NCBI GenBank assembly: GCA_900128565.1
Contig: LT635916.1
Span: 1-60,587, forward strand
Direction of reading: 5' to 3'
Source: Stramenopiles sp. TOSAG23-6
Lineage: Eukaryota
DNA: 60,587 nucleotides
Shown: positions 1,184 through 53,215 of the stretch, in pieces
Layout: the number at the start of each line of letters is the position of its first letter
Numbering within the stretch: position 1 is the stretch's first letter
Notes under the pieces: model-generated
Told to the model about the DNA's origin: nothing
Seen by the model: only the letters and a program-made list of their open reading frames with translations
The model's database searches: none
Program-made: the position numbers and the translations under genes

Positions 1184-1859
1184 CTTTTTAAACTTTAAAA
1201 AAATGTATTGTGAATATATATGTTATAAGAAGGTATTGTGAGTATTTTTTTTGAGAATAATATGAGTTGTTTGTAAGAATAGAGTTGGGAAGTTGGGAAG
1301 AGGGGAAGGGTATAGTGATAAATTAAAGAACAATTGAGAATGGCACAAAAGAGAGAGAAATGGAAGAAAGTGTGTAGAATTTTTGGGACAATTTTGAGGA
1401 ATTATTATATCCAATCGAAATTATGTGAAAAGTGAGTGAACTTACCTTTAAATCACTTTAAATTACGAAGGCTCTACTGATACAAGTACGGTGAAAGAAA
1501 AGGAAGAGAAACAAAAGGACAAGAGACAGCAACGGAGAGGAAGAGAGAGAAAGAAAGAAAAGAGAGAGGAAGCGAGCGCGAATTAAAAAACATGACTATC
1601 AAAAATTGACATCAAAAAATACAAAACATCAAAATTCGCTGTTATTTTTCTAAAATCCCCCGCGCAAATAAAGTTANAATTTCGTGTTTTTGATTTGAAT
1701 GACGTCATGACTCAACATCTGTTGTTATCACTAAAAGACTATCTCGTTATATTGAGGTAGCAATCAATACGAATACAATCGGATTCTGTATTTTCTTTGG
1801 TAAGGTGGAATTAAAGTAGTTTGTGCAGACGTCCGAGAGATCCAATACTCTCCAGGATA

Positions 1860-3926
1860 ATGTCATACGCATCAATGGATGCAACAGTATCTGCTATCAT
1901 CCTTGGGGTAGCCATTTTGCTTGCAGCGTTACAACCATCTCAGTGGTTGACAATGATTTGTTGTTTACTTTGTCCGTGCGCTTTTGTTTTATTTTACCGC
2001 ATTAATTTTGGTTCATCAAATGCGAAAGCTCCACCACAATTCAAAACTGGCTTGCCTTTAATAGGTCCATTTATTGCATTTGCAAAAGACCCCCTTGGAA
2101 CAGTTTCACGTGCACGTTCTCAGCTTGGTAACGTGTTTACTATTCGCATGTTTCATATGCAACAAACGTTTCTAGTTGGAAGTGCGGCACATAAAGCTTT
2201 CTTTGAAGCAAGCGACGAAGAACTAGACCAAGCTCCAGTATACCGTTTTATGGTACCAGTATTTGGGAAAGGCGTTGTATATGATGCGCCTCTAACTGTT
2301 CGCCGTCAACAATTTCGAATGTTGGGAAATTCCCTCCGTCCCTCTGGTCTTCGACGTTATCCTGAAGTTATTGCTGCTGAGGCTCGTGACTTTTTTTCGA
2401 CATCATATGGCCCATCTGCAGATGTAGATTTACTCCATTCTATGGCAGATTTGACTATTCTTACAGCAAGTGCAACTCTCCATGGTCCAGATGTACGACA
2501 GAAGTTGCACAAACAAGTTTCTCATTTATTTCGACAAATGGACGAAGGAATATCACCGTTGAGTATAGTTATGCCATATCTTCCAACCCCTGCTCACCGT
2601 CGACGTGATGCTGCTCACCGTAAAATGGTTAAACTCTTTGCTGGAGTCATTCGTGATCGTCGGAAAGCTGAACGTCTTGCAGCAAAAACTACTTCAAATA
2701 AAACATCACCACCTACTGATATTCTTCACAAACTAATTCATGCAAAGTATAAAGATGGCACTAGAGTTCCTGGTCATGAAATTGCAGGGATGTTGATTGC
2801 TGCTCTCTTTGCGGGACAACACACATCTTCTGTAACTGTTACTTGGACAATTTTGTTTTTATTGGATAATCACAGAAAACACGAAAAAGAAAATATAGAA
2901 GGAAAAAGTTGGTTGTCCAAAGTATTGGATGAATTAAATGAAGTTGAAACTTTAGATAATTTATTTTGTAATGGTAAAGTTACTCATGATGATGTCAGTA
3001 AAATGAAAATACTTCATGCTTGTGTCAAAGAATCTATTCGAATGTTCCCTCCTTTAATATTTCTCATGCGTCGTGTTGTGAAAAAACCTTTGGATGTTGA
3101 AGGTTTTAAAGTTCCAGTTGGACATAATGTCATGTATGTTTTATGTTTTTTCAATTTCGAGTTTTTTTTTCGTGCGAAATTTTGTACCTAAAGATTTTTT
3201 TTTTGAAATATTTTTCCAAAATATATGGTCTCTAATGCTGTTGCTCAAAGGTTACCTGAAGTATTCGAAAACCCAAACACGTGGCTTCCAGGAAGATGGC
3301 TTGATTTTGATATTCGAACACTTCCACCGTATTCATTCATTGGTTTTGGAGCTGGGATTCATACCTGTATGGGTGAAAGTTTTGCATTTATGCAGATAAA
3401 GACAATACTTGCTGTTTTACTCACTACGTATGATATGAAATTGACAGGTCCATTACCACCAGCTAGTTATGACGCTATGGTCGTGATGCCACGGGGGCCA
3501 AATATAGTCAAATTTCGTCGTAAATCTGGGATTCTACAGTCATCTGTTGGCGTTTCAGAGAAAGAGAAGACTTCTTTGAAGACAGTTACTACAAAATCTC
3601 AAGGAAAAAAAAAATCAAACATATTAAAGACACTACCTTCATCTAACTTTGAGAAAAATGAAAATTCTGATCCAAATGAAGAGTTTGGTCTAGACAGTTT
3701 CACTATTGAAGAAATTTCAAAACATTCAAAACGAGATGATTTGTGGATAATTGTGAAGGATCGTGTCTATGACGTCACACAATTTTTACCTGTTCATCAA
3801 GGTGGAGATTCGCTTCTTAAATGGGGTGGGAAAGATGCCACTGTCGGTGTCTTTGGACCCCAACATCCTTCCACAGTCCCAACCCTATTAAAACGATATT
3901 TAATTGGAAAAGTTGATAGAAACTAA
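1860..3926 (+). CDS. CYP51: Sterol 14-alpha-demethylase (CYP51) with C-terminal cytochrome b5 domain; exons 1860-3133 and 3227-3926
   Basis: N-terminal TM; YRFMVPVFGKGVVYDA, I-helix AGQHTS, ExxR (ESIR), heme motif FGAGIHTCMGE; b5 domain LWIIVKDRVYDVTQFLPVHQGG...GKDAT...QH. Removing 3134-3226 gives GHNVMVSNAVAQRLPEVF. Confidence 0.92.
3134..3226 (+). mobile_element. 93-nt repeated non-canonical GT-AT intron-like element, copy 1
   Basis: GTATGTTTTAT...TTCGTGCGAAATTTTGTACCTAA...TTTGAAATATTTTTCCAAAATATAT; contains in-frame TAA and TGA; similar to 8075-8166 and 27775-27866. Confidence 0.85.
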
Positions 3927-4080
3927 ATATATTGTTTTTTGTCAAATTCTTCCATTGTGATTTTTCATCAAAGAAAATGTCGTAGCGTAACATGTGCCAC
4001 ATAAAGTTTTAAAATTTGGGTAGTTAATTTGATAGACCTGCTGATTTATTTTGTTATTAAATATTAAAATACAATTTATT

Positions 4081-6411
4081 CTATGTAGAACTTTTGTTTC
4101 GATTTGCACGAATTTTTGCCGATAAAGGTTCTGATAGACAATGATCTTTCATTATAATCTCAGCACATTTGTCACCAATCATCATGCAGCATGCATTTGT
4201 ATTCCCAGACGAAATACTAGGCATAACACTTGCATCAGCAACTCGAAGACCTGAAACGTTTCTTACTCTGAGTTGTGGGTCTAAAACAAATTCTGTTACG
4301 TCACCATCAACATGCCCCATTCTTGCTGTACATGCATAATGCCAAGTTGTTCCCACGGAATATTTCGCAAGTGAAGCTAATTGTTCATCAGTAGCATTAA
4401 AAAAATCTTCATTGCCTTTATAACCCCAAACTTTTTCAGCAAATTGAGGTCCAAAAAATGAAGGTTTATGTACACCCATCAAATGTCTCATACATCCTAC
4501 ATATTTTGAAAATGGGGTTGATTTACATATATCACGTATTTTCTTATACACTTCAACCATTGCGTCTAAATCTGAGGAATCACTTAAATAATTTGGATCA
4601 ATGACAGGTTTGTCAAAAGGATCATTAGAGCGAAGAGTAAGAGTACCTCGAGATTGTGGATGATTATATTCAAAACCAAAGATAAATGTTCTTCTTAATC
4701 CTTCTTTTTCACATTCTGGAGCATTTCTACAATATGTCAAAATTAAAGGTTGAAATATAGATTTACCAAACCATGAGTTCATCAAAGTTGAGCCTAATGT
4801 TTGATGTCCAAGTTGTTCTATACCCAAACGTTGTAGTGCACCCATCGCTGGACGTGATATTAAAATGAGTTCTGCATCTGGACCAGAATCAAAATTCTTG
4901 TTTTCATCTCGTTTTTTATCTACATCAGTTTTAAAGAATGCAACTCCATTTAGTGATGAAGTGCTTGATACTTCCACTGGTGTTTTCGTACACTTTAATG
5001 AATCCTCAGACGTAGGATTATCAGGTAAATAAAATCCTATGAAACCTGAAGGATGATCTTGTAGATGTCTTCCTACAGCTGGAACATTAGCAACACATGG
5101 AAGACCATATTTTTTCAATTCATTTGAGTCTCCAATTCCACTTAATAAAAGTATTTGGGGAGTCTGCAAAGCACCGGAACACAATATTACTTCACCACAT
5201 TTATTACACCCACGAATATTTACATTTGAAGCTCGGTTTACATACACATTACAAACAGATCCATCCGATAATGTAACAACAACACCACATGCTTGAGGTA
5301 ATTCCTTAGATGATTCATCTATGGAATCCTTAGATGATTCATCTATGGAATCCTTAGATGATTCATCTATGGAACAACCCCAGTTATCGAAGAGAACCTT
5401 TATAACAAAAGCTTCACTACAAACTGTGAGATTTGGAGTTGTTCTCAGTATTGGCTCGATAAAAGTATTGAAAGCATCAGAGCGAGTTCCACCAGAATTA
5501 GTATTGGAAGATTGTTGAACATGAGCTGAACCAGCTTGTGAACTGCCATTATAGTCATTAGTTCTTGGAATGCCATTTTGGCTGCAAGACTCTACAAATG
5601 CTTCTACTTCTTCCAAAAGTGGAAATGGAACATTTGGAGTCATTAAACCTTCACTTCCTCTATTTTCTGGAACAGAATCTTTTTCTCTTTCCCTAGTAAG
5701 AACATCTCTGCAAGATAACGAAACTTTTCTTGGACAAATCGCTGATTGAGTAACCTTTTCAAGAGCCATAAAATTTGGAAGAACAGAATCATATGACCAT
5801 TCTTCGCCACAACCAAATTCATCACTTGCCCAACGATCAAAGTCTTGAGGAGCTCCTCGTACCCACATTGACCAGTTGAGACAACTAGAACCACCTAAAG
5901 TTTTCCCTCTGTCCAAGTGAATGCATTTACCACGAGGTAGTAAATTACGTTGTGGTTCGGAAGTAAATCCCCAGTCAACTTCAGATCTATATAATGAAAA
6001 TGCATTCGATGGATTTTTAATATTACTAGCATTCTGAGCCTCTCCGCCAGCTTCAATAAGGAGGACTCTCACAGTAGGATCTCTAGAGAGACGATTAGCA
6101 AGGACACAGCCAGCACTACCAGCGCCAACAATGATAAAGTCGAATGGCTCCCTCAATGGATAAGATAAACCAAGATTTTCGTGTGTTGCAATGAAACGAT
6201 TCTCAAATTCAGAAGGTAAAACACCTCCCGGGTTTTCGCAGTTAATTCGCTTACTATGAGTACCTGGGTGACGTAACAAAAACGGTTTGTTTTTTAAGCA
6301 CATTGGAAAAATTATAATTAATAAAACTGCCACAAAAAAATGGACATAAGTAATATCGCTCAGCAATGTCCGATATAAATACAGAAATAAAGGATTCAAA
6401 CTGTCGAACAT
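4081..6411 (-). CDS. GMC (glucose-methanol-choline) oxidoreductase with N-terminal TM segment
   Basis: FDFIIVGAGSAGCVLANRLS, GKTLGGSSCLN, GALQTPQILLLSGIG, HLQDH, C-terminal WHYAC...LRVADASVMP...GNTNA. Confidence 0.93.
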   Translation of the reverse strand: MFDSLNPLFLYLYRTLLSDITYVHFFVAVLLIIIFPMCLKNKPFLLRHPGTHSKRINCENPGGVLPSEFENRFIATHENLGLSYPLREPFDFIIVGAGSAGCVLANRLSRDPTVRVLLIEAGGEAQNASNIKNPSNAFSLYRSEVDWGFTSEPQRNLLPRGKCIHLDRGKTLGGSSCLNWSMWVRGAPQDFDRWASDEFGCGEEWSYDSVLPNFMALEKVTQSAICPRKVSLSCRDVLTREREKDSVPENRGSEGLMTPNVPFPLLEEVEAFVESCSQNGIPRTNDYNGSSQAGSAHVQQSSNTNSGGTRSDAFNTFIEPILRTTPNLTVCSEAFVIKVLFDNWGCSIDESSKDSIDESSKDSIDESSKELPQACGVVVTLSDGSVCNVYVNRASNVNIRGCNKCGEVILCSGALQTPQILLLSGIGDSNELKKYGLPCVANVPAVGRHLQDHPSGFIGFYLPDNPTSEDSLKCTKTPVEVSSTSSLNGVAFFKTDVDKKRDENKNFDSGPDAELILISRPAMGALQRLGIEQLGHQTLGSTLMNSWFGKSIFQPLILTYCRNAPECEKEGLRRTFIFGFEYNHPQSRGTLTLRSNDPFDKPVIDPNYLSDSSDLDAMVEVYKKIRDICKSTPFSKYVGCMRHLMGVHKPSFFGPQFAEKVWGYKGNEDFFNATDEQLASLAKYSVGTTWHYACTARMGHVDGDVTEFVLDPQLRVRNVSGLRVADASVMPSISSGNTNACCMMIGDKCAEIIMKDHCLSEPLSAKIRANRNKSST
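5303..5374. repeat. Perfect 3x 24-nt in-frame tandem repeat (SIDESSKD) in the GMC gene
   Basis: TCCTTAGATGATTCATCTATGGAA three times. Confidence 0.95.
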
Positions 6412-6579
6412 TTTGATTTAATTGGGGTTCTTTTACAGTATATATTCTAATTGATGACAACCTTCAAGACCTGATAATTACCGGCAACAAGACTTGGTGA
6501 AAAGGTAGGGAGAGGAGGAGTCTGTCTTGGCCGAAGAAGTTGGCAGCTGTCATTTTTGTGAACTTGGAAAAGATTACGA

Positions 6580-6594
6580 TTAGGGTTAGGGTTA
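6580..6594. promoter_or_regulatory. Telo-box-like motif TTAGGGTTAGGGTTA
   Basis: In a divergent intergenic region, ~76 nt before ATG 6671; recurs at three other gene starts. Confidence 0.55.
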
Positions 6595-6670
6595 TATTTG
6601 AATGTTAGTTTTCAGAAAAAAAGCGAAATACTCAGATAAAAAACTTCTTTTCTTTCTCAGCATTGGTATA

Positions 6671-9225
6671 ATGCCTCTAGGTTGGGCTCTTTGTCTATTT
6701 CTCTCTTGCAAATTGTTTGTGCTAACACATTCTATCACTCCTACAGATCCTACAGTGGTCAGTGTTGACGTGGCTGTTGATGGAAAGACTTATATTTTTG
6801 AAGTAAACCCTACCATTTCACCTGATGAAGTGTCCGAAAGTGCACGGAGTTGGTGTGAAAGTCATGGTATATCTCAATCTGCTGATCTAAATACATGCGC
6901 ACAAGCCATTTCCAATAGAGTGCAAAATATTAATGCGTCGCCTGATATAAATTCGTCGATAGAAGCAAAGAACCTGCTTGCTGACGCAATGAAGCTTCAC
7001 CGAACAGGTCACTTGAGTAAAGCCATTGAAGTATATAGTCAACTATTAAAGTTGGATCCATTAAATGGTGATGCCTTTCATTTGCTTGGTGGTGCATTTC
7101 AAGGAAATGGTGATGTTATAGAAGCAATTGAAGCATTTCAAGGGGCTTTACGTGTCGCTCCCAAAGTTCCACAGTTCAGCGTTTCCTTGGCAAAAATACT
7201 ACTTTTTGATGCACCAAGTTTGGAACCCTCAAAACTATTAGATATTAGTGGACACCACACAATAAATGAATGGATTGAATCTGTATTACGTTCTGCTTTA
7301 AACCACGGTGCAATGAAAAGTGAAATATCCGGAAATGATCTTGATGCACTAGGGTTTTTAATGCACTTTCTCAATCGTGAAAATCGTCCCATGGACGCAC
7401 TAAAAGCATTTAACAAGTGGAATACTCTTACTACTCTCGATCCAAAAGCAATAAGCAATGCACTACACCTCGATAACTTTCTTAATAAAAATGCAAAGGC
7501 ATATGCTGAATATATAATGGAGGCAGGCTTAGCTTTACACCGTACAGAGTCACTAGAAGATGCTGTTAATATGTTTGAGGCTGCAGCAGCATTTACACCA
7601 AATTCTTCTCGACCATGGATGAATGCTGGTGTTGTCCTTGTTGCATTGAAGCAACATGATAATGCTGGAAAAAGATTTGTTAGAGCTGTGAATGTACAGA
7701 CTAGTTTAGATTGGAATGCTCTACAAAATTGGCAAGGTCACACATATAATAAACATCAAATGACTCAAACATATAATACTACTACGAAAGCAAAAAAGAA
7801 TAAATTTCGTTGGATTTCTCGTCCATTAAACAAGAAAGTAATTGCGATATATTGCAATGAATATGGAAATAGTTGGTGGCCAAAATGGGGTTGGCGTACT
7901 GCTGGTGGTGGTGGCGGTGGTGGTAGTGGTGGTGGAATTGGTGGCTCAGAAGAAGCTGTTGTATTTCTATCTCGTCAATTAGCTAATATTGGGTATTGGG
8001 TAGAAGTGTATGCTAAACCACCTGATGATCAAATAGGTGAGGAACCTGATGGTAATGTTGTATGGTATCCACATGTATGTTTTATTTTTTTTCAATTTCC
8101 AATTTATTTTTCGTACGAAATTTTGTACCTAACAAAAAACATTTGAAATATTTTCCTACAATACATTCCGCTTTCTCTCTTCTTCCTATGGATGCACCTG
8201 ATATTTTTGTTTCATGGCGGTATGCTGTCTCTGCTACTTTGGGTCGATATGCAGGTTTATCATATATATGGCTTCAAGATATTGGTCGTGATATATCATC
8301 ACAGCTTACTTCGCGTATGATGAATTGTATTGATGGTGTGTTTGCTTTAAGCCATTTTCATGTATCACTATTAGATCCTGTTACACAACCAATGGCAGTG
8401 GTAACACCAAATGCACTCGATCCTGCATTTTTTCGAAATGGTAAAAATGCACCGTGGAAATTTATTTATGGAAGTAACCCTTCCAGAGGTCTTGAACAAT
8501 TACTTACGGTATGGCCAAAGATTCGAAATGGACTTGCTCATATGTCTAAAGAATGGAAGAAACACGCGGAAACAGAAAATATGTTGGATGAATATGAAGA
8601 CGGTGCAACACTTTTTGTATATTATGGATTTTCTGAAGCTTTTATGAAATGGGGTAAAGCATCAATGTCTAACTTTGATGAATGGCTTCGACATATGAAA
8701 ACATTATTAAAACAACCAGGTATTCGATATATTGGTATGGTAGGGCATGGGGAATTAGCCGAAGCATATGCAAGCAGTGGATTTTCCTTATATCCTACTT
8801 CTTTCCCTGAAACTGGTTGTGTATCATTAATGAAAGCACAAGCTATGGGCTCTATTCCGATTACTAGTAGATACACAAAATCAACTCTTCCAGAACTAAC
8901 TGCCGAATTTGACCTTGGACCACCTAGTAGACCTGGTAAAATATCTGATGATCCAGAATGGTTGAATGAGTGGGCTGCATCGGTCATTACAGCAGCTGGG
9001 GCTACAGGTGAGAGATTAATAAGTATGAAAAAACATAGAGAGAATATGATTCATTGGGCAAGAAAGAAATTTTTATGGTCACATGTTGCGCACCTATGGC
9101 ATCGATCGTTTCAGCGAGGTGGGGAGAGATTATTTGATGATAAAAAACAAAAGCCAAGATCTATATATTTTGATGAAGAAACTATTGATGCATCGCATGA
9201 AGCAGTATTTTCAAAGAAACAATGA
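6671..9225 (+). CDS. Secretory-pathway TPR-repeat GT-B (GT4-like) glycosyltransferase; exons 6671-8074 and 8167-9225
   Basis: Signal peptide, TPR helices, GIGGSEEAVVFLSRQLA, DIFVSWR, YGSNPSRGLEQLL, YPTSFPETGCVSLMKAQAMG; the two ORFs join in frame when 8075-8166 is removed. Confidence 0.85.
8075..8166 (+). mobile_element. 92-nt repeated non-canonical GT-AT intron-like element, copy 2
   Basis: GTATGTTTTAT...TTTCGTACGAAATTTTGTACCTAAC...TTTGAAATATTTTCCTACAATACAT; contains no AG; removal gives VWYPH|SAFSLLPMDAPDIFVSWR. Confidence 0.85.
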
Positions 9226-9315
9226 TTATTGCTTCAAATAGAATAAATCTCTCTTGATACAATTCATTTTTTTTCTGAAACTTATAATTTATTTGTGACA
9301 ATGTGATGGTACAAT

Positions 9316-10494
9316 TTACTCCTTTTTCCACTTTAATTCAAAATTATGCTTCATTGCAACACATTCCAATAAAGTTTCAAATTCGTGCCAAGAAAGCGTA
9401 CCTGAGCCATCTTCATCCACAATCTTCATCATTTCTAGTATTTCATCTGCACGTAATTCATAATTCATCTTTTTAAACAAAGATTTTAGTTCAGAAATAT
9501 TCAATTCGCCATTTCCGTCAATGTCTGTAGATAAAAAGTTTCCTTTCACATCACTAATATCAGGCAATTTAGCAATTTGAGATAATGCCGTCGACCAGGT
9601 TCTTTTACTATTTACTTCTCGACGCTGCTTTTCATATTCAGATATTTGTTGTACTATCTTACAAAACTCAGGTAAATCTATCTTGTTATCATTATTAAAG
9701 TCTGCACTTTCCATTATATTTTTCACATATTCAGTGGAAACTTCTGAGCCAGACTTTTTAAGTGCCAACATGAGCTCATCAAAATCTATACTGCCGCTTT
9801 TATCTCGATCTATTTTACGAAATGTAGTTTCTACACTACTATTTGATAAAGACATTCCAAGTAGTCCTCTTACACTATCCTGTTTTAAAATAATTCTTTC
9901 ATCAAGTGCTTGAGCAAGCCAACCATGTGAGTGTAAATTAGTGATATGAGGTTGAATTTCATTTTGTATAAATTCTTGACCCCAATGAACCATAATATTT
10001 GCCGCCTCATGAGCAGTATATCCACCATTATTCTCGTGAAGGATAAAAAGAATTTCTGATGCAGGAAAACGTTCAAGAAGGTGCGCAACATAGTCATCCT
10101 GCCAAAATTCATCCTTAAAATGAAGTTCATCAATTACATTAGCTACAATTTCTTTATCGCAATTTGACAAGATTTCAATAACATGTAAGAAATCCCATTT
10201 TCGCATAAAATAACATAATCGGGTAGTACCCATTCGTTTGTGAGAGAACACTGAAATTAGTCTTTCATTTTTCCAACCGTGAATTAATTTTTCTAGTTCT
10301 TTAGCCGTATAATCTTGACACGCGATCATAAATTTATTCACTGTCCATGTTTCAAGCACCTTATTTAACTTTTCTTTATCGCAGGCGTCGTTCAAAACCT
10401 GTCTCAACTCAGCAAACCAGTTGTAATTTAGAGCTTCAGACTCAACTATATCTGTAGTAGACGGGGTAACGTCGAATGTATCGGCATTTGACAT
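9316..10494 (-). CDS. Protein with four C-terminal EF-hands and an unrecognised helical N-terminal half
   Basis: Loops DRDKSGSIDFDE, DFNNDNKIDLPE, DIDGNGELNISE, DEDGSGTLSWHE; first ATG at 10494. Confidence 0.88.
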   Translation of the reverse strand: MSNADTFDVTPSTTDIVESEALNYNWFAELRQVLNDACDKEKLNKVLETWTVNKFMIACQDYTAKELEKLIHGWKNERLISVFSHKRMGTTRLCYFMRKWDFLHVIEILSNCDKEIVANVIDELHFKDEFWQDDYVAHLLERFPASEILFILHENNGGYTAHEAANIMVHWGQEFIQNEIQPHITNLHSHGWLAQALDERIILKQDSVRGLLGMSLSNSSVETTFRKIDRDKSGSIDFDELMLALKKSGSEVSTEYVKNIMESADFNNDNKIDLPEFCKIVQQISEYEKQRREVNSKRTWSTALSQIAKLPDISDVKGNFLSTDIDGNGELNISELKSLFKKMNYELRADEILEMMKIVDEDGSGTLSWHEFETLLECVAMKHNFELKWKKE

Positions 10495-10795
10495 TATAAA
10501 GTTGCGCTTATTAAATGATGTATTAATATTAGATATCAATCAATGGCAAAGATAAGTGCATTCAAAAAGACTTTTGTTATTTGTAGTAAGTGGAGGTGAA
10601 GGTTACTTCAATTGAAATGTGTGATCAAAATTTAGTAGGTTGGCTAAACCAATTTATAATTATTCCCTTGGGCTAAATAGCTAACCCAGTTTATTTTTTA
10701 ACCGTTAACTAACGCGTATTAACGTATCAATTTTTGAACAACACATAGCTACAGATCGGATCGATCAATGGTCATTATTTAGGGTTGTAAAAGTT

Positions 10796-12811
10796 ATGTC
10801 GAGGTCTTTTTCAAAATTTATTGTGATTGGTGGTGGCATTGCAGGTGTAACTGTTGTCTCTGAGTTAAGCCAGCGTCTCCCCTCAGCATCAATACTGTTG
10901 ATAAGCGCCAGTGATACGGCCAAATTTCCTGTGAATGTAACTCAGGTAACTCAAAACTTGGATACATTTGACGTAGCTGAACAGCCCCTGGAAAAATTAT
11001 TAGACTGTAGTCCAAATGTGTCGGTAATGAAAGCATGGGTAGCGTCGATTGACTCCGAGAAGAAGATTGTTCGTACCACTAAAGGACAAGAAATAAAATA
11101 CGAACGCATATGTTTTTGTACAGGTGCAATTCCAAAACTTCTTGTTCAGAACCATCCAAATATTATAGGAATCCGTGACACAGACAGTGTTCTAAAACTT
11201 GCCTCTCGACTTTCTACTTCGCGTCGAGTGCTGATTGTTGGTAATGGAGGTATAGCTCTTGAACTTGTTCATGCTGTTCAAGATGTTGAAATTATATGGT
11301 CCACTAAAGATGCATATATAGGCAATACATTTTTTGATGCCACTGCAGCTGATTTTTTTATGCCCGAACTAAAGCAGAGATTAAAAACTCCTTTTGAATT
11401 ATACGGGAAAACTACAAAAATCAATGAAGTAGACATGATAGAAACAGAATGTTATAATACTAGAGATAAAATTAATGATTGTAATACACAGAATCTACCG
11501 ATCCAGAAAGTGACACCAATCGAACCAATAGGGACATCAATGGGACCAAAATGGTTAAGTATATTACAATCTATGACAAATACTTCTTTATCAAGTCCTT
11601 TGCAGTGTGTGTCTCCGTCCTCTTCAAAGAAGAAAAATGTTTTTCATAAAGGTTGTTGCAGTCATGGTATTCAAAAGGGTATTTATATGTTTGATGAAGA
11701 AATGTCGAATACTACTACCACTACTACTACTACTACTACTGAGAGAGACAATAAAGAATTTTGTAGAAAACATAATAAAAAGTCAAAACCGTCATCATTA
11801 GTCTGGGAAAAGCTAACAGAAATTGACTCAATATGTGATACCCACAATAAAAATATTTCAGAATTTCATTACTGGTGTAAAATATCCAAACTACCAAATG
11901 GTAGAACGAATGAAAATTTTCACCAGGAAGCACCCAGTAACAAAAATCAAGATATTGTATCACAATCAATAATAAAGCAATCTGGTAATTGGCCACTACT
12001 TGTGCGATTAACTAATGGTGCTGTATTTGGATGTGATATCATTATTTCGTGTATTGGTGTTGTGCCTAATTGTAAAGTAGCACCGATTGAATGCCTTGTG
12101 AATAAAGACTTTGGTGGGTTCATTGTAGATAAACGTATGCGCATACAACAATATCAACGAAATAATGATCAGAAGAATAGTGTTTGTGTACCCTACGCTA
12201 AAGGTTCTATATTTGCAGCTGGCGATTGTACGTTCATAAAATCAAATGAAAATTGGTTTCAAATGAAATTATGGAGTCAAGCACGAACTGCTGGTTCTTA
12301 TGCCGCGCAATGTATGGCAGATCAAGTAGATTGTCTCGAAGGAGGTATGCGTTTTGAATTATTTTCTCATGTGACATCATTTTTTGATAGACGTGTTGTA
12401 CTATTAGGTTCATTCAATGGACAAAATATGGGCTTACCTGAAAATACAATTGTAGACTTTACACACTTTATAATGACAAAATCAGGGGTAAAACGTGTAA
12501 AACAACGTCAAAACTATCTAAATAATACAAAGTGTTTTGTTGATAATCCTGATACAACATATCGTGATTCAGCGTCTTCCTCAAAAGACGCAGATATTGA
12601 AGTGATATTTCGCATTACTTCATCTAAAGAATACATAAAAGTTGTCTTTCAATATGGTAGAGTTGTCGGAGCTGTACTCATTGGTGATACTGGTCTTGAA
12701 GAAACTATTGAAAACTTGATCCTTGATCGACTTGATGTAAGATCAGTATTTCGTGGTGATTGTGCTGCTCTTTTAGATCCTCGTGTTGATGTTGAAGATT
12801 TTTTTGACTAA
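10796..12811 (+). CDS. PYROXD1: Pyridine nucleotide-disulfide oxidoreductase domain-containing protein 1
   Basis: IGGGIAGV, IRDTDSV, VGNGGIALEL, WFQMKLWSQAR, FELFSHVTSFF, GDTGLEETIENLIL, C-terminal LLDPRVDVEDFFD. Confidence 0.92.
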   Translation: MSRSFSKFIVIGGGIAGVTVVSELSQRLPSASILLISASDTAKFPVNVTQVTQNLDTFDVAEQPLEKLLDCSPNVSVMKAWVASIDSEKKIVRTTKGQEIKYERICFCTGAIPKLLVQNHPNIIGIRDTDSVLKLASRLSTSRRVLIVGNGGIALELVHAVQDVEIIWSTKDAYIGNTFFDATAADFFMPELKQRLKTPFELYGKTTKINEVDMIETECYNTRDKINDCNTQNLPIQKVTPIEPIGTSMGPKWLSILQSMTNTSLSSPLQCVSPSSSKKKNVFHKGCCSHGIQKGIYMFDEEMSNTTTTTTTTTTERDNKEFCRKHNKKSKPSSLVWEKLTEIDSICDTHNKNISEFHYWCKISKLPNGRTNENFHQEAPSNKNQDIVSQSIIKQSGNWPLLVRLTNGAVFGCDIIISCIGVVPNCKVAPIECLVNKDFGGFIVDKRMRIQQYQRNNDQKNSVCVPYAKGSIFAAGDCTFIKSNENWFQMKLWSQARTAGSYAAQCMADQVDCLEGGMRFELFSHVTSFFDRRVVLLGSFNGQNMGLPENTIVDFTHFIMTKSGVKRVKQRQNYLNNTKCFVDNPDTTYRDSASSSKDADIEVIFRITSSKEYIKVVFQYGRVVGAVLIGDTGLEETIENLILDRLDVRSVFRGDCAALLDPRVDVEDFFD

Positions 12812-12865
12812 ATAAATAAAAATAATAAATTAGATTTTGATAAGTGTATTCAAAATTTTCAGAAT

Positions 12866-18808: not shown

Positions 18809-19127
18809 TATATATACGAAAGAAATTATACCTTCTATCTATACCCAAACGTCTCCCCTGAAGAACACACAATGTTCAAATTGCGTTCAATTTTGCTCCT
18901 GTGACATTTAAATTAAAAATTCGCATTTTTTCGTTCAGTTCGAAGTTCGAACATCTCGATCGATCAGTCACACCTCGAATCAGGCCTTCTACCACAAGTA
19001 AACTACGCTTATTAATAGTAAATGATAAAAGCGACGATATTAGTTATAGGAATCACAATAACGGATTAGTATATTTGTTATAATCTTGAATTGCATTATT
19101 TGTGTATACATATAGTACAAAGGAACG

Positions 19128-21527: not shown

Positions 21528-21553
21528 TAAATTTCTCAAAATATTTTTATATT

Positions 21554-21988: not shown

Positions 21989-22336
21989 AATAATACTCTT
22001 ATATCAAGAATCTATTGGTCCAATAAATTCATTGAAAATAAATCAAAAGAACCTAACAAGATGTATTGTATTATATATAGGTCAGGTAAGTCTATAAAAT
22101 TGCTATTTTTTTCGGTTTTGACACGTGTTGTTTGAAACCATTTTTTATATGTCTACAGCTATATCCTGGCAAATATTTGGACATGGGGTCGAGAAATAAA
22201 TATCCACCCACCACGGTGTGTATATATAAAATAAACGACGAACGAAGAGTATCCGAGTCCTACCTCTATCGACGATTGGACAAGTATCGACGTGAAAAGT
22301 AGTTGCATTTTGCAAGATATACTTACCAATTTAACA

Positions 22337-23137
22337 ATGCTAATCTTTGAAGATATTTTCCCTTTTATTGGTTTAGCTGTGTTTCTCTCCGGTTTTGTTT
22401 CTATTTTACACAGTTGCCTTTCATTTGCAAAAAGTGAGGACAACGTCTTTGCTCGATCAAGGAAGCAGAGAACCTTCAAGGGATACCTTGGTGGTGATAT
22501 CACTATATATCAAGCTTTCGATGGGTCTAGTTATGGCAGTTGTACTGGTGGTAGTGTTGGAGCATCTGTATGGAGATCTGCAGTCGTTCTTGGTCAATAT
22601 CTTCAGGCTAATTCAGAAAAACTCAATATAAAAGAGAAAGTGGTTCTTGAGTTGGGTTGTGGCACTGGCATTACTAGTATTATCGCATCACGATTAGGTG
22701 CCAAAGTATTTTGTACAGATGGGGATGAGCAATTATTGAAACTAACTAGGCGAAATATAGATAAAAATTTGTCTGCTGAAAAACGAGAGAGTTGCATTGT
22801 AAAGAAATTACACTGGGGAAGCACTGACGATGTTGCAAAAATAGAATCTTCAGTAGATCTCATTATTGCAGCAGATGTTATTTATCATCCATCAAATTTT
22901 CAATCTTTTGTATATACATTAGAAAGTATTGGTCAACGCAACGTTAATTTCACTGGAAGTAAATCTATAAAATTTATATTGGGCTATACAAAGAGATTTA
23001 CGAGTGACAAACTGTTTTTCGACATTTTACATAAAAGTTCATATTTATCTTCTCCGTGCCTTTTATTGGATGATAAAGATTCTGGCGTCAAAATATTTGA
23101 ATATACTATTTTTAATAAAACTCTCAAAAGAGGATAA
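22337..23137 (+). CDS. METTL21-family protein-lysine methyltransferase
   Basis: VGASVWRSAVVL, VLELGCGTG, TDG, LHWG, DLIIAADVIY; first ATG at 22337, start uncertain. Confidence 0.88.
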   Translation: MLIFEDIFPFIGLAVFLSGFVSILHSCLSFAKSEDNVFARSRKQRTFKGYLGGDITIYQAFDGSSYGSCTGGSVGASVWRSAVVLGQYLQANSEKLNIKEKVVLELGCGTGITSIIASRLGAKVFCTDGDEQLLKLTRRNIDKNLSAEKRESCIVKKLHWGSTDDVAKIESSVDLIIAADVIYHPSNFQSFVYTLESIGQRNVNFTGSKSIKFILGYTKRFTSDKLFFDILHKSSYLSSPCLLLDDKDSGVKIFEYTIFNKTLKRG

Positions 23138-28486: not shown

Positions 28487-31400
28487 CTATTTAGTAACTT
28501 GCTTACTTTCCTGTGATTTCATATAATTTCGTGTAGCGGTTGATACGCGATATCTTTGGGCAGTTGTGAGTCTAGTAGGAATATTGCACTCATCAACTTC
28601 TCTTGCAACAACAGATAAAACTTCCTGTGGTAGAAGGAGTTTATTCAAATGTACTTCATATAAGTTGTGTTTGGCATTTCGTTTAGCTTGTCGCTCTTCA
28701 GCTTCATTTGATGGGACAGCAAGGCAAGCCCAACTACCATTTAAATGTCGACTTTTAATCGATTTAAGTCCAGTAATCATAAACACACAACTAGCTGTGG
28801 GCTTTTGGTGTATCCCACAGAAATCGGTGGTAACAAGTCCCATCTTCGGTTGGTTTTCATCAAGCAATTGCCGTTTTGAACAATTTGGATTCTTACAAAA
28901 TTCTGTCTTGGTAAATGATTTAAACTTAGAACTGTTCTGTTTAACTTTGACTTCTTTAAGACCAAGCTTTTTTCGTAAATACTTTGCTGCGTTAACCATG
29001 ACACCTTTAGTGGAGGATATGGAATATCGAAGTTGCTTGTAATGTGCGGATGGAAAACGTGCGTGGAGTTCACGCACGTAATCTCTTAGGTCGTTTGCTG
29101 TTGTTTGTGAATCCTTCAAACCTCCTTTATCTTGCAAAGTCATTGCCCACTTTTGTGTCTTGAGTTCCTCCATTCTTCCCAAATCTTTAGTAGCACCAAC
29201 TGCAAGCTTTATTAAATTTTTTCGCGACACTAAAACTCTACGTGTATCTCCACTTAAAAGCCGCACAATCCATGTTCGCTTAGGATCGTTTGGATTGTAT
29301 GTTTTTGGTCGCCGTTTCATAGGGATTCCAGCAGATGTGGTATAAGATTCTAATGGACGAGCATCAAATAATTCCAATGCAACGACCCATTCGTTCTCCA
29401 GTGTTGCATAACTTCGGCCGACATTGTTTATTTTTAGTGTATCGCCTTTCAATGGAATCCTTGTTTGACCATTCAATTCATTAGACCTAGTTGAAAGTCC
29501 TCTTTGGGTTTTACGCTTATAACTTACACGTTTCTTTTTACCTTTATGCTGAGCGAATTGAACACTGTCGTTGTCGTCTTCATCTTTATCAGGTGTTTCA
29601 TTTTCTAAAAGTATTTTATTTTCAGCAACATTTTCTTCCCTTTCACCAACATCTAATAAAACATTAAATGTGTTGTTACTATTTTCTCCATCAATAACAC
29701 CTTTAAACCAAGTTTTTTTCCCCCGTAACAAAAACATCTTTNTCTGAGAACNTGTNCGCGCACACTATTTCGAAGAATCGGATATTTCAGGTTTTCACAA
29801 AACAGGTTTATCACTGTCTCTTCTTCCTGTCCTATCAAAGATTCAATTTCTACACCAAAACTTCCATCATTATTAAAACGAACAATACGACCGCTTTCAA
29901 ATATTCTCAGATCAGGGGGTGCTTTTGGAATACCAATCTCAGATGCTTTCGTTTTAATATTATTGTTCTCAACATCCACTTTTTCATCTTTATCTTTTGT
30001 TTTATTTGTATTTTCTTCGCCACTTTCATCTTCATCTTCTGTGTAATCGCTATCAGATTCACTGTCTTTTGATTCAGTCGTAGGGTCGCCTGGGACAATT
30101 TTTTTCTCTTGCGTAGCCAAAACTCGAGCTCCTATAACATAATAAGGATCACCTTTGAACTTATTCCATAGAGGGTCGGGGTCTGTGACATCGTAAACAT
30201 CATTCTTTTTCCCTCGATCTTTCGCTTTTGGCCATCTATATCGGACCAATTGACCTCGCCTGAGGGGCATTTGAACAGCAGTGCGCATGTTCTTTCCATG
30301 GAGCCAGAAATAATCCCATGGACCACCCCCTTTACTAATTTCTAACTTGTAGAGCTTATGCTCTGTTCCATTAATTAGTACAGCCTTTGGTACGTTTTTA
30401 TCTCCATCATTTTCATCCGGAGCACCATGTATTGCCACATGTAGCAATTGATCAAGTAATTTATTGTTACTCCGGATTTCGCGTAGATCTGACCTTAGTT
30501 TTGGCGTAGCTCCAATGAGTTTTAATTCACTATATGACATTCGGAGCTTGGCCATTTGTATTTTTTCAACTTCGTCTAATGCCCTTTGTTCTTGCTGTCG
30601 AACTATTGCTGTAGCTGGTCTCGCAGGTCGAGCACTATCCCACTCTTGTGTACCGCCATATTTTTCTACAAAATAANATTTTGAGAATGGTGCTTGGGAA
30701 TCGGCAATGTCGTCATTTTTTTCTTCGCGAANAAAGTCATATCGCAACTCTGCTCCATTTAGAACTCGCTCTAATTCCATTTTAGCTGATTTGACGTCCA
30801 ACGCACTTTCTCTCAAAGCAGCAGTAAGTTGAGCAGCTCGTAGCTTCACTTGCTTTGTTTGTGTTAACCCTTTCAAAGTAATTGCGTCTGGTCTCCGACC
30901 CCATCGATCTTCTAAAAGTGTTGCTTGGGGAAATCTATTGAGCAATTCATTTACTACATTCGTTCTTCCCCAATAAACGGCAAGATGAAGAGGCGTTGAA
31001 TTATCATTTGTCCTGGCATCACATTTTGCCCCTGAATTTAATAGTAACCGTAATGATTCAAGGCATCCAGAAAATGCAGCAGCGTGAAGAGGTGTCCAAC
31101 CACTTTTGTCACAAATACTAATGGAAGCTTTTGAGTCTGGATCGACATATGCATTTCCTGATGAAAGAAGTTTTCTAACAATAACATGATGACGGGCTTG
31201 TGCTGCCCAATGTAAAGCAGTTCGACCATGGTAATCACAACTATTTATAGGAACTCCTTCTTTCAGCATCGCCTCAACACTTTCGAGGTCACCAAACCGT
31301 GCAGACCTTACAAAGTCAAAGGCACGTTGGTCTTTTTCTGAAATTGCAAAGATAGCTTTGTGTGGTTCTGCGTGCATCATCCTATTTGATTCAACACTAT

Positions 31401-31779
31401 ACTGCTCATGCTTACTTTTACTGGCTAGTATAAAAGATGTCCTGCGGTTGGAGCTTTTGCGGCTATTTTTAGAGTGTTTTGTTGAAGTTTTTATTGGTTT
31501 TCTGACTTGTCCTCGTTCACTTGGTTGAATATTTGGGCATAACTCCAAAACTAATTTTTGAGCTGATCGTTCACTATCACTTGGATCCGCCATTTTCAGT
31601 GCAAGTTGTAAAACTTCAGTGCTTACATGGGGATACTGCTTTTGAAGTAGTTGAAATGGGTTTAATTTCGGAGCCCTACGAGACTGAGAATGAACTAGTG
31701 TAGATCGTGAACCTAAAACTAATGTAGATATGCCAGGAAGGCTCCCTTTTGCGTTGGAGTACTTTCCATTACGGCCCAT
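28487..31779 (-). CDS. Ankyrin-repeat protein with CUE-like and Tudor-like segments; probably one gene split by ambiguous bases
   Basis: Ankyrin motifs GRTALHWAA, GWTPLHAAA, STPLHLAV; the frameshift between ORFs 29653-31779 and 28487-29737 coincides with N calls at ~29743-29756; Tudor-like RGKKTWFKGVI...TFNVLLDVGEREENV follows the junction. Confidence 0.75.
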
Positions 31780-50611: not shown

Positions 50612-50873
50612 ATTAAACTGAAGGGTAGTAACTTCGAGAACTTAGGTAGTTGTTTGTGTAAGTAGTAGGAGGAAAGTTGACTTGCAAGTTTGCACTTGCT
50701 ATATAAAAAAAGAATGGTTCTTCGAAACACACGAAATCGAAAATCGGAAATTAAAAATTTAATCGCGGGTCGCGAAGAAGTCAAAATCGAAAATCAAATC
50801 ATAATCAAAAATCATCTTTCACCGCTCCTCCTCTCTGCTCTCACTCACTAGTACTAACAACTTATATTTGAAA

Positions 50874-53215
50874 ATGAATCAAATCATTTCAGTTAAAGTC
50901 TGGTTTAAAACCATTTTATTAACTATATTAGTGGTAAATGCTTCCAATGTATTGGAAAATTGCATTGATGTGGATACTTTATGCGCAGATCTCAATACTG
51001 AGTGCACAGGTCAACTCCATTCCAACGCAGATGTCGACCTATGCACTGAGTTATGGCAACGCTGTAGAAATATACAAGCTGATTGCAACAAAGAAAGGTA
51101 TTTTAACGCCAGCAGCGTTACATATAATCCAGATATACATCAACATACTTCAACAAATCGACTCTTAGCATCTTTGTCAATGAAAAAATCTTTAACAAAA
51201 GTTGAAGCAAAAAAGCTTATTTTGAGTGGAGCCAATGTTCATGCCCGAACCTTTCGCAATGCAACTGCACTTATGCTGGCTGTTTCACACCAAATACCTT
51301 CCCCCGAGCTTATAGAGACTTTACTTTTGGCTGGAGCTGACCCCAATGAAGAAAATTCTTTCAAAGAGACAACTTTGCATTTACTTCTGGTAAATTGGAG
51401 TGTAGCGTCCAATAACCAGTGGAATGTTTTTGAACAAACTCTTGACTTACTTCTCAAATTTGGTGGAGATAGTAGTTTAGGTGATCAATATGGACAAACA
51501 CCCCTACACATTGCGGTATCAACACATAATTTATCTGCGACAGAAGCATTTTTTATCCGTCAGCCATTTGCTGTTGAAGCTTGCGCAGTGGACATCGAAG
51601 GCAGGACAGCTTTACATATTGCTGTTGCTCAACCAATGTGGACAAAGATTGTCAGTGCTGCAATTCTCGCCGATAAAAGTAAAACATCTTCCAACACTGC
51701 ATCACATTTGACTAGCTTATCAAAAGATATTGCTTTCATGAATTTTGAATCATGTATTGATATATTTAAATCATATGTTTTGATGGAGAATAAGAAGACT
51801 GACAATGATCAAGGAGATGAATTAAGTATTCATATTACTTATATTTTAAATATATTTTCAGCTTGTGGTTTTAGTAGCCGTATTGTAAGAGCTTTACTTG
51901 AAAATGGAGCTAGCAAATGCATATCAAAAAAGGATGCTTCAGGACTTAGTCCGATAGAATTGGCCGTTGATAATGTTAATATTGCCGCTGTTCGAGAGTT
52001 ACTTAAATATGGTGTAAGAGACACAGCTACAGACATGGATGATATTATAAATATAGCCATTGCTAGAGGTTCTGATTCAATTGTAAAATTGTTATCACAA
52101 TCTACTGAAAAATTGGATGTAAAAATAAATGTAGAAGAAGTTTTTCATGTGGAAGAAAAAAGAAATTTAGCATTATCAGAAGTACAAAGTTTTAATATAA
52201 AGCAACGAAAAATACATGGTGATGGAGGATGGTCGTTTCCATTTAGTAGTCCAGGTGGCCAACTAGAAGATAAATTGGTTGATATGACTCATAATTGGAA
52301 CTCTAACTATTGTAGTCTTGATCAATTGCAAATTGCCGATGTCGATTTTCAGCGTTTTTGGGATGATTATGTGACTACCCGGCGTCCTGTTATTCTTAAA
52401 GGAGCTTTATCAGATAATGCAGGAGCCTGGACAAATTGGCAGAGGATGAATATCGAAGAAACATATGGTTCTATGATATTTCAGGTTGGTCGCCAACCAT
52501 ATCCAAAACAGGTTGGTCAAGAAGAGTGGTCAATGTCTCTTAGTGAATACATGCAATATATGCATCGAACTTGGTCAGAGGAAAATGAAATATTATTGGA
52601 AGAACGCCATGAACCAAAATATATTTTTCAATTCAAAAAATGTAGTAAAATGGGAAATAATACAGGTTTAATTTTTCAGTCGAGACCAATACCAAATTGG
52701 GCTGACGATCTTGGTCATATTGAAGCTTTCAAGCATCCAAATATCCAGCCGAGGCATTTACAATTTTACCTCGGCCCTCCTTTAAGTGGTGCTCCAATGC
52801 ACTTTCACGGTAAATATTAAATTTTACTAAAATACAAAGAGTATTTTTTTTTATCAACTTCAAGTAAATTAATTTTTATCACACTTCACATATTCGAAAT
52901 ATTACAGGTCATGCAATCAATATTTTAGCATATGGTTTGAAACACTGGACATTTATTCCTCCAGGTAAAGCATACACAACAAGTCAAAATGTGGGGAAAC
53001 ATTTTGAAGAAAAAATAAGAAGACTAAAACAGCCCAATTTAAACAATCATAGTACCAGCTGCCTGCAGAGCCCAGGTGATGCAATCTATGTACCAATAGG
53101 GTGGGGGCATGAAGTCATTAATATAAAAACTAGTGTAGGAGCTGCACTTGCATTTGAACAACAAGCAAGTGAAGAAGCAGAAGCATCAGTAATCCCATAT
53201 CATCAGTTAATATAA
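50874..53215 (+). CDS. Signal-peptide ankyrin-repeat protein with JMJD8-like JmjC domain; exons 50874-52809 and 52908-53215
   Basis: Ankyrin motifs; spliced SGAPMHFHG|HAINILAYGLKHWTFIPP...QSPGDAIYVPIGWGHEVIN. Confidence 0.87.
52810..52907 (+). other. Canonical GT-AG intron (98 nt)
   Basis: GTAAAT...ATTACAG; removal restores the JmjC core. Confidence 0.9.

Follow-up and report, generated by a model that had tools for sequence, protein, structure and literature searches.

An introner-like repeat family with apparent GT...AT termini in genes of a marine stramenopile

Introners, which are known from Micromonas, Aureococcus, many other protists, and fungi, are near-identical copies that each make up a whole short intron (PMC11282704 and PMC9860276, in the portions available). 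In these accounts, introners lie in the sense orientation in unrelated genes of otherwise intron-poor genomes, look like MITEs, have repeats at their junctions, and supply one of their splice sites themselves. The known families were found among annotated introns, and the departures from GT-AG mentioned in the available text are limited to rare GC or GA 5' sites.

Amoebophrya reportedly has non-canonical introns derived from MITEs. Introns of a similar kind occur in Fritillaria borealis, where families derived from transposons have non-canonical ends (AG-AC and AG-AT, so that some have AT at the 3' end), TIRs, and TSD-like repeats, and where a U2-type spliceosome handles them (PMC11282704 and PMC13326754, each available in part). 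GT-AT introns are also found, rarely, in animals: according to the accessible part of PMC1557818, these are functional, as demonstrated or as judged by conservation, a conserved U2-type GT-AT intron is found in mammalian DGCR2, and GT-AT termini as such are permitted for U12-type introns. Finally, the non-conventional introns of euglenids have a non-AG end, paired ends, TSD-like repeats, and a suspected MITE origin, and are described as lacking a conventional donor or polypyrimidine tract (PMC11282704, in part). Non-canonical introns and introners were not mentioned for MAST lineages anywhere in the literature searched; supplementary lists, such as those of PMC9860276, may include the lineage.

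We analyzed a window of 60,587 nucleotides, which is the whole stretch of contig LT635916.1 from Stramenopiles sp. TOSAG23-6. (The source name of the closest public gene models points to MAST-3 stramenopiles.) A 92-nt insert at 8075-8166 on the forward strand, with 21% G+C, interrupts a gene in phase 0, and the ORFs on its two sides (6602-8146 upstream and 8062-9225 downstream) are in different frames. The first exon (6602-8074, forward strand) encodes TPR repeats, which match Pfam's TPR families, and the start of a glycosyltransferase-like domain; it ends with ...WYPH, and homologues align through these last residues. The second exon (8167-9225, forward strand) encodes the glycosyltransferase-like C-terminal domain (SAF...DAPDIFVSWRY...) and has 2,724 relatives at E ≤ 0.001, some of which are named protein O-GlcNAc transferase in their source.

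Exact removal of the insert gives the best fit to the homologues of this gene. When alternative isoforms were scored against 144 homologues, deleting 8075-8166 gave the top score, and variants with 3 nucleotides more or fewer lost 1 bit, scoring worse for 81 homologues and better for 17. After removal, 102 of 125 HSPs with homologues continue across the junction, and relatives have WYPH-TAY, WLPH-SAF, or something similar where this gene would have WYPH-SAF. The closest relative (P0002, 56% identity) is uninterrupted at this position, as is a relative from Phytophthora (P0007). A search for transcript-derived protein fragments across the junction gave zero candidates that shared three words. 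We also considered a reading based on paralogues and rejected it, as neither half of the gene has a paralogue in the window.

The main fact about the insert, which is absent from the original prediction, is that it belongs to a repeated, transposon-like intron family. The window contains three copies with 92-93% identity, each lying in sense within a gene of its own, and the three genes are unrelated. Copy 1 (3134-3226, 93 nt, phase 2) lies in a gene for a fusion of cytochrome P450 and cytochrome b5 (1821-3926), copy 2 is the insert in the TPR-glycosyltransferase-like gene, and copy 3 (27775-27866, 92 nt, phase 1) lies in a gene for an FAD/NAD-binding oxidoreductase-like protein (26925-28447); all are on the forward strand. 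In each of the three genes, the frame is regained once exactly one repeat unit is deleted. For copy 1, positions 1-363 of Pfam's P450 model end at the last residue before the element, and the model resumes at position 372, eight residues past the element, which amounts to exact continuity. In copies 1 and 2, only exact removal of one unit restores the conserved protein. Reading through the element by frameshifting was rejected: copy 1 contains two in-frame stops, and two shifts would be needed.

All three copies begin with GTATGT, have TACCTAA(C/A) 34-35 nt before the end, and end with A(C/T)AT (ATAT in copy 1, ACAT in copies 2 and 3); these family features are those of three full copies. In copy 2, the donor (8075-8080) has the U2-type consensus and is invariant across the three copies and the alignment of a fourth, partial copy (L001, see below). 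The branch-point-like box TACCTAAC (8126-8133), which is a motif match, would place the presumed branch A at 8132, 34 nt upstream of the insert's end. The donor and the box fit the strong U2-type consensus and are invariant save for one change in the box of copy 1. This change is off consensus: at 3192, nearly all of the contig depth reads C instead (CCTAAC), and CCTAAC was carried by 36, 31, 9, and 4 contigs in four runs. There is a T-rich tract, and in copies 2 and 3 the stretch from the box to the end is free of AG. GT...AT is the sole register in which all three copies have a donor that could be used.

The element also has a short, imperfect candidate TIR (GTATGTTTT and AAAATAC), inner inverted repeats, and, in copy 2, a central palindrome (TTCGTACGAA, 8110-8119) that lies within the best-conserved core of the family and forms the central hairpin of the predicted folds. 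Repeats of 3-4 nt (ATG, ACAT, and TGT for copies 1, 2, and 3) are found at the junctions, in shifting registers. All three copies are predicted to fold into three stems with paired ends (GUAU with AUAC), but the terminal stem is weak (z-scores of -2.2, -0.7, and -1.5), and the folds gain little stability over those of shuffled sequences. The weak stem counts against our reading below.

The fourth, partial copy, L001, is on a metagenome contig, in the sense orientation within a DNA polymerase B-like ORF, and its 3' part is unrelated sequence; it was the one locus found in the scan of metagenome contigs. Searching the window with nhmmer gave no additional copy at E < 1. Scans of genome contigs gave 0 matches and then 2 chance matches without the element, and two scans of viral contigs gave 0 matches. 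No family in Rfam, ribozymes included, matches the element (best E-value, 1.7).

We consider it somewhat better than an even bet that this is an introner-like, MITE-like family of introns spliced as GT...AT, and it is our best reading. The family would be a short (92-93 nt), AT-rich, hairpin-forming introner inserted in sense into protein-coding exons, and its host would be a compact, intron-poor marine eukaryote. The major (U2-type) spliceosome would recognize GTATGT and the branch box and form a lariat, and the second step would take place at a non-AG site (YAU), 34-35 nt past the branch A, where the element ends. Such a site would retain the A at -2, so that the last base alone departs from YAG. 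It might be marked by the short terminal inverted repeat (GTAT.../...ATAC, with AT as a 2-nt overhang) or by the fixed distance from the branch box. The junction repeats resemble remnants of insertion, and because of them, the exact cut is ambiguous by a few bases. In copy 2, the end of the element and the putative acceptor would coincide at ACAT (8163-8166), which repeats the ACAT at 8071-8074.

The family is like introners in that near-identical copies each appear to be a whole intron, and it differs from them in its end: introners are defined by GY...AG, and here GT is present and AG is missing, with AT in 3 of 3 copies. It also has no fixed register for the junction repeats, and splicing is something that we infer. 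By the usual description of U2-type GT-AG introns, the 5' site and the branch box are present as motif matches and the 3' AG is not. Fritillaria borealis and Amoebophrya differ from our case in lineage (tunicate and dinoflagellate, not stramenopile), and the accounts available in part give their introns a non-canonical 5' end as well and make most introns in the genome non-canonical; here the donor is GTATGT. The neighboring ordinary introns also differ from theirs: we found two in the window, and both are GT-AG. Because these end in AG, the host's spliceosome is not AG-independent in general, which counts against our reading. As for the animal GT-AT introns, the terminal dinucleotides are identical, but each of those introns is single and unique, whereas this one is a repeated family of the mobile-element type; and in the animal U12-type examples, the donor differs and the branch box lies near the 3' end.

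The original prediction argued for a non-AG acceptor from the sequence of copy 2, and most of its facts are right. The insert (GTATGT...ACAT) does not contain a single AG; in fact, AG is absent from 8042 to 8252, between an AG at 8040-8041 and the next one at 8253-8254. That next AG was said to be out of frame with the donor at 8075 and to lie beyond DIFVSWR, and both statements are correct: 8075-8254 is 180 nt, where a length of 2 modulo 3 is needed, this pair is missing from the ORF-preserving pairs that we enumerated, and the codons for DIFVSWR are at 8200-8220. However, the absence of AG is unremarkable by itself because the insert has just 6 G's and 8.3% of 20,000 mononucleotide shuffles were also free of AG. 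(Across the window, 632 of 60,495 92-mers on the forward strand, or about 1%, lack AG.) The statement that copy 2 has no canonical escape route was too strong, as in-frame GT-AG pairs do exist, such as 8075 to 8304 and 8079 to 8254. The core of the argument is what fits the evidence best: the insert would have to be removed exactly, and every AG route would cost conserved residues. The homologue alignments across the junction, the isoform scores, and the P450 continuity at copy 1 all favor this, and on these grounds we infer a non-AG acceptor for copy 2.

Among the alternatives, the one that fares best, though we think it unlikely, is that the element is a MITE insertion that is not spliced, so that the gene is disrupted (it would be a pseudogene, or an allele, deleterious or polymorphic, that this assembly happened to capture) and yields no full-length protein. 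The RNA data bear on this. We used metatranscriptome Logan contigs from the 4 of 12 runs listed (X1, X2, X4, and X7), aligned to 1800-21799, which includes copies 1 and 2 and leaves copy 3 outside. Spliced RNA was not seen, which tells against our own reading: neither 8074 to 8167 nor 3133 to 3227 is among the 15 joints listed of 21 in the four runs, and no contig listed for these runs bridges the junction of copy 1 or of copy 2. The core of the element was abundant, with matches to hundreds of contigs in two of the four RNA runs, and its depth summed to about 10^4 in X2 and X7, against 1-5 for exons; the alignments to copy 2 mostly cover about 8103-8133. This abundance in contigs from RNA libraries is as expected if the element is not removed, although the high depth could reflect retention in RNA, carry-over of DNA, or other carriers. 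One 308-nt contig in X1 tracks exon 1 of the copy 1 gene up to 3134 and then continues with 5 letters that are unlike the intron, which hints at use of the copy 1 donor. An unspliced insertion would also fit with the element's 3' end, which is not a known acceptor, and with the failure of both public gene models to span the element. On the other hand, all three copies and L001 are in the sense orientation and begin with a consensus donor, the ORFs on either side are conserved and, apart from the element, intact, and three elements in 60 kb (about 1 gene in 8) would mean many broken genes for a compact genome.

A slightly less probable alternative is canonical GT-AG splicing to a cryptic AG downstream (8304 or 8254 for copy 2, 3250 for copy 1, and 27902 for copy 3), which would give internally deleted proteins. 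The host's ordinary introns do use AG; ORF-preserving pairs exist for copy 2 (8075 to 8304, 230 nt, and 8079 to 8254, 176 nt); and for copies 1 and 3, the first AG downstream, at 24 and 36 nt, keeps the frame. But in copy 2, these two pairs would remove 46 or 29 conserved residues, respectively, including the most conserved motif of the protein family; they lower the score by a median of 21-31 bits and fit worse for 116-117 of the 144 homologues. Across five in-frame GT-AG alternatives, the median loss is 21-50 bits, and 116-123 of the 144 homologues fit worse. From the branch box of copy 2 to the first AG beyond the element, the distance is 122 nt. For copy 1, splicing to the in-frame AG at 3249-3250 would cost 8 positions of the P450 model, all of them otherwise matched without gaps. 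Copy 3 has a good canonical in-frame acceptor (TTTTTTAG, with AG at 27901-27902), which counts against our reading. For the choice between AT and AG in copy 3, homologue searches gave only the gene's own public model (P0151) and two weak matches to the N-terminal FAD motif; BLASTP of those matches against the C-terminal part gave nothing, and PDB, NCBIfam, and Atlas held nothing usable.

It is also rather improbable that the element is excised from RNA by a non-spliceosomal, structure-guided process, as has been proposed for the non-conventional introns of euglenids, with the paired ends marking the cuts. The predicted pairing of the ends, the three-stem fold common to all copies, and the junction repeats would suit such a process, as would the pyrimidine-purine border at the 5' side (3 of 3 copies) and the 3' side (2 of 3); these are traits of euglenid introns according to the available part of PMC11282704. 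Unlike those introns as described there, this element carries both GTATGT and a branch box as well as a T-rich tract, all of which would be needless for that mechanism. Also, the terminal stem is weak (z of -0.7 to -2.2), folding barely beats that of shuffles, and Rfam offers no match.

The original prediction pointed out that the ACAT repeat flanking copy 2 (8071-8074 and 8163-8166) would allow the boundary to slide, in this copy alone, to AT...AC. This holds: 8073-8164 is 92 nt, preserves the ORF, and leaves the product unchanged; sliding would give copy 1 the termini AT...AT and copy 3 the termini CT...AC. It seems doubtful, and distinctly more so than the alternatives above, that copy 2 is an AT-AC intron of the minor or the major spliceosome. 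AT does precede GTATGT in copies 1 and 2, in L001, and at one further contig locus, but the register is missing from copies 1 and 3. U12-type introns have an RTATCCTT donor and the box TCCTTAAC 10-26 nt from the 3' end. That consensus is matched neither by the 5' sequence of copy 2 in this register (ATGTATGT) nor by its box, which lies 34 nt from the end, and more generally, the family's donor is GTATGTTT and its box is TACCTAAC at 34-35 nt from the end.

We think it very unlikely that the element is excised from DNA, as in programmed elimination (compare the IESs of ciliates), or that only some members of the population carry it. Short direct repeats do flank every copy, and no RNA junction was seen, but this would leave the splicing signals unexplained; also, P0151 holds residues translated from copy 3, although this model may share the assembly. 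We know of no programmed DNA excision of this kind in stramenopiles.

Least probable of all is translational bypassing, with the ribosome hopping from a take-off codon to a matching one a repeat unit further on. In all three copies, the codon read in frame at the 5' junction does recur 92 or 93 nt on (ATG, CAT, and TGT; P = 0.020 that a random trinucleotide pair so spaced matches). But the coincidence has P of about 0.07 if junction repeats of 3-4 nt simply fall in any register. The take-off codons are followed by TAT, GTA, and ATG rather than by the stop or hungry codon that comes directly after the take-off site in T4 gene 60. The splicing signals would be coincidental, and we know of no precedent for hops of 92 nt at thousands of sites in cytosolic translation.

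Returning to splicing as GT...AT, both public gene models are wrong because they were forced to use GT-AG introns: P0001, for the gene with copy 2, starts in the wrong frame, and P0151 includes 19 residues of element sequence. If three copies per 60 kb holds genome-wide, then a considerable fraction of the reference proteins of this lineage would be corrupted. Surveys of introners would be blind to a family like this because they started from annotated introns (PMC9860276, as far as the available text describes). More broadly, if our reading is true, intron and introner catalogues that are based on annotations, as well as reference proteomes, systematically miss or corrupt such genes.

We would give roughly equal weight to either side of a broader statement, that this is a high-copy introner family of an uncultured marine stramenopile lineage whose 3' site (YAU) is set by the element, via its terminal stem or the spacing from its branch box, and used by the major spliceosome, with ordinary introns of that genome keeping AG. 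The family is abundant in marine metatranscriptomes, so the question is open to study with public raw reads. If true, AG-dependent and AG-independent choices of the 3' splice site would operate side by side in one small genome, and an AG-independent class of introns with a perfect donor and branch box would provide a clean natural test of how the 3' splice site is defined.

Searching the window with the insert at 8075-8166 (BLASTN) identified two further copies, and alignment together with an nhmmer profile scan put the total at exactly three; besides these copies, the scan of the window gave no match with E < 1. Each sits in a different gene, on the coding (plus) strand: copy 1 (3134-3226, 93 nt, phase 2) in a cytochrome P450-cytochrome b5 fusion gene, copy 2 (8075-8166, 92 nt, phase 0) in a TPR plus glycosyltransferase-like gene, and copy 3 (27775-27866, 92 nt, phase 1) in a FAD/NAD-binding oxidoreductase-like gene. 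(In the fusion gene, at 1821-3926, the cytochrome b5 domain is C-terminal, as judged by Pfam p450 plus Cyt-b5.) Within the parts aligned by BLASTN, the copies are 92-93% identical. Each opens with GTATGT, continues with the palindrome TTCGT(A/G)CGAA, TACCTAA(C/A), a run of variable sequence that is rich in A in copy 2 and in T in the other two, and TTTGAAATATTTT(T)CC, and closes with A(C/T)AT, 34-35 nt past the presumed branch A. A fourth, partial copy, in sense orientation, is present on a metagenome contig (L001), where a DNA polymerase B-like ORF ending in ...AACAT lies directly 5' of GTATGT. From within the element onward (170-1076), this contig is unrelated AT-rich sequence, with adapter-like letters at its end; it is probably a chimeric assembly.

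In all three copies, removing the repeat unit alone restores the downstream frame. At copy 2, the two overlapping ORFs (6602..8146 and 8062..9225) are in different frames. The C-terminal half of this gene has 2,724 relatives at E ≤ 0.001, and we used 149 of the best 150, leaving out P0001, which is the public model of the same gene. With a script-built query of 240 residues spanning the junction, there were 125 matches, and 102 of them run across it. There is conservation to either side of the junction, in WYPH before it and in S/T/Y-A-F/Y followed by PDIFVxWRY after it. The closest relative among the best 150 (P0002, 56% identity) has the same spacing in a single open frame on a 3.5-kb contig, and a Phytophthora relative is likewise uninterrupted. 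At copy 1, the match to the Pfam P450 model (1-363) ends at the last residue 5' of the element and restarts at model position 372, the eighth residue 3' of it; counting the split codon, the model match is gap-free across the element. The family is probably a MITE-like introner. Its own sequence would provide a strong donor and branch box, and the second step of splicing would occur after YAU instead of YAG. The family itself, the need for exact removal, and the presence of the signals are established, whereas removal by the spliceosome, the branch, and the acceptor are inferred.

The foremost alternative, which we consider unlikely, is that the element is an unspliced insertion that disrupts the gene. 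Parts of 1800-9300 were found in twelve marine RNA runs, in small shares, and we compared four of these metatranscriptomes (X1, X2, X4, and X7, as Logan contigs rather than raw reads) with 1800-21799. Exon coverage in the four runs was thin (depth of 1-6). The element core (8103-8133 and 3163-3200) had a summed contig depth of ~10^4 in X2 and X7, with 689 and 758 contigs aligned, and of 26 in X1; retention, carry-over of DNA, or other carriers would explain the high values just as well. No splice joint across copy 1 or copy 2 was seen among the 15 of 21 joints listed for these contigs. The listed joints connect copy 1 with copy 2 and originate from other loci; one is from a locus with two elements ~26 nt apart, the first of which ends in ...CCACAT. 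An X1 contig matches exon 1 of the P450 gene as far as 3134, and the five letters that follow differ from the intron, which fits use of the donor and is uninformative about the acceptor. At the branch box position where copy 1 has A, almost all contigs have C, so the family consensus is CCTAAC. Hundreds of distinct contigs match the core in X2 and X7, and the family (or its relatives) is real and abundant in the sea.

It is also rather unlikely that a canonical cryptic AG is used, giving proteins with a deletion. As the original prediction stated, the copy 2 insert (92 nt, from GTATGT to ACAT) contains no AG; the nearest are at 8040-8041 upstream and 8253-8254 downstream. Taken alone, this absence is weak evidence; just 6 of the 92 bases are G, and 8.3% of 20,000 shuffles were AG-free. 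The downstream AG was correctly described as out of frame with the donor at 8075 (an intron at 8075-8254 would measure 180 nt, and the needed length is 2 mod 3) and as lying beyond the DIFVSWR codons (8200-8220). The broader claim that copy 2 has no canonical escape held only in part: ORF-preserving GT-AG pairs do exist, such as 8075 to 8304 and 8079 to 8254, but the in-frame routes score worse. When alternative products were scored against 144 homologs, exact removal, the reference, scored best, and five in-frame GT-AG routes lost a median of 21 to 50 bits (worse in 116-123 of 144). Shifting the cut by 3 nt either way cost a median of 1 bit (81 worse and 17 better, of 144). The observation on copy 2 is confirmed and its interpretation partly supported. 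At copy 1, taking the in-frame AG at 3249-3250 as the acceptor would lose eight matched P450 positions. Copy 3 has two possible in-frame ends, one at 27866, with AT, and one at 27902, with a good TTTTTTAG, and protein and profile searches found no homolog that covers this site.

The window also contains two ordinary GT-AG introns of unique sequence, so AG is the host's normal acceptor, from which the element class departs. The first (37296-37405, minus strand, 110 nt, GTAAGT...TATAG) splits the J domain of a DnaJ-domain gene near its start, with exon 1 at 37406-37450 and exon 2 opening at position 5 of the DnaJ model. The second (52810-52907, plus strand, 98 nt, phase 1, GTAAAT...TTACAG) splits a JmjC/cupin gene, linking the ORF at 50868..52820 (ankyrin repeats and the cupin start) to one that matches JmjC, from 52910 onward. 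By sequence, 21990-22290 (GTAAGT...TCTACAG) is a candidate for a further GT-AG intron; it sits 5' of a lysine methyltransferase-like ORF (22292..23137) that begins without ATG. There are N bases at 1677, 18637, 29742, 29752, 29756, 30677, and 30732. Those at 29742-29756 fall at an apparent frameshift between minus-strand ORFs (28487..29737 and 29653..31779), which looks like assembly uncertainty, not an intron.

Non-spliceosomal excision guided by structure is quite unlikely. The predicted folds of the copies have three stems in common, one of them a terminal pairing of GUAU with AUAC beyond which AU stays single-stranded, and are only slightly more stable than shuffles (z of -2.2, -0.7, and -1.5). 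Splicing in an AT-AC register is very unlikely. As predicted, ACAT occurs on both sides of copy 2 (8071-8074 and 8163-8166), so the boundary could slide to AT...AC (8073-8164) with the product unchanged. However, no register but GT...AT gives every copy a usable donor, and the copies have just one other register in common, one base to the left (TG...CA/TA). The family also departs from the U12 consensus. Direct repeats of 3-4 nt flank copies 1, 2, and 3 (ATG, ACAT, and TGT), at varying offsets relative to the element (-2..+1, -4..-1, and -1..+2). These repeats do not match a fixed-end transposon that duplicates 3 nt. If 1-2 mismatches are allowed in each copy, they do match a CATG-like duplication of 4 nt that the splice register divides 3+1. 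Excision at the DNA level is highly improbable, and ribosomal bypass is barely credible. The repeat holds an in-frame codon in every copy, so the 5' junction codon recurs one unit downstream (ATG at 3132/3225, CAT at 8072/8164, and TGT at 27774/27866). Identity in all three has a probability of 0.02 cubed under a naive null, or ~0.07 given repeats at an arbitrary register. Bypassing would require identical junction codons of this kind; the donor and branch box, however, speak for splicing, and the identity may follow from the 3-4 nt repeats.

If spliced after YAU, the family behaves like introner elements and departs from them in one feature, as they usually end in AG (PMC11282704, PMC9860276). 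The MITE-derived non-canonical introns of Fritillaria borealis, with their AC or AT ends and diverged U2AF, are similar (PMC11282704, PMC13326754); in contrast to those, the element keeps a perfect donor and has ordinary GT-AG introns alongside. Single GT-AT introns, U2-type and U12-type alike, are known in animals (PMC1557818). No such introns turned up for the MAST group in the literature searched, including MAST genome papers, whose supplements may list them. The window's character agrees with the compactness of MAST-3 genomes, which have ~80% exon content (preprint).

A consequence can already be seen in two public gene models, whose exons are 100% identical to the window. The model of the copy 2 gene (P0001, 252 aa, 8411-9222) starts in the wrong frame, downstream of the element. 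That of the copy 3 gene (P0151, 460 aa, 26925-28444) reads into the element, makes a forced GT-AG jump to 27902, and omits two short in-frame stretches, one of 14 and one of 11 residues, where the window's frame stays open. Both public models mis-model the genes that bear the element.
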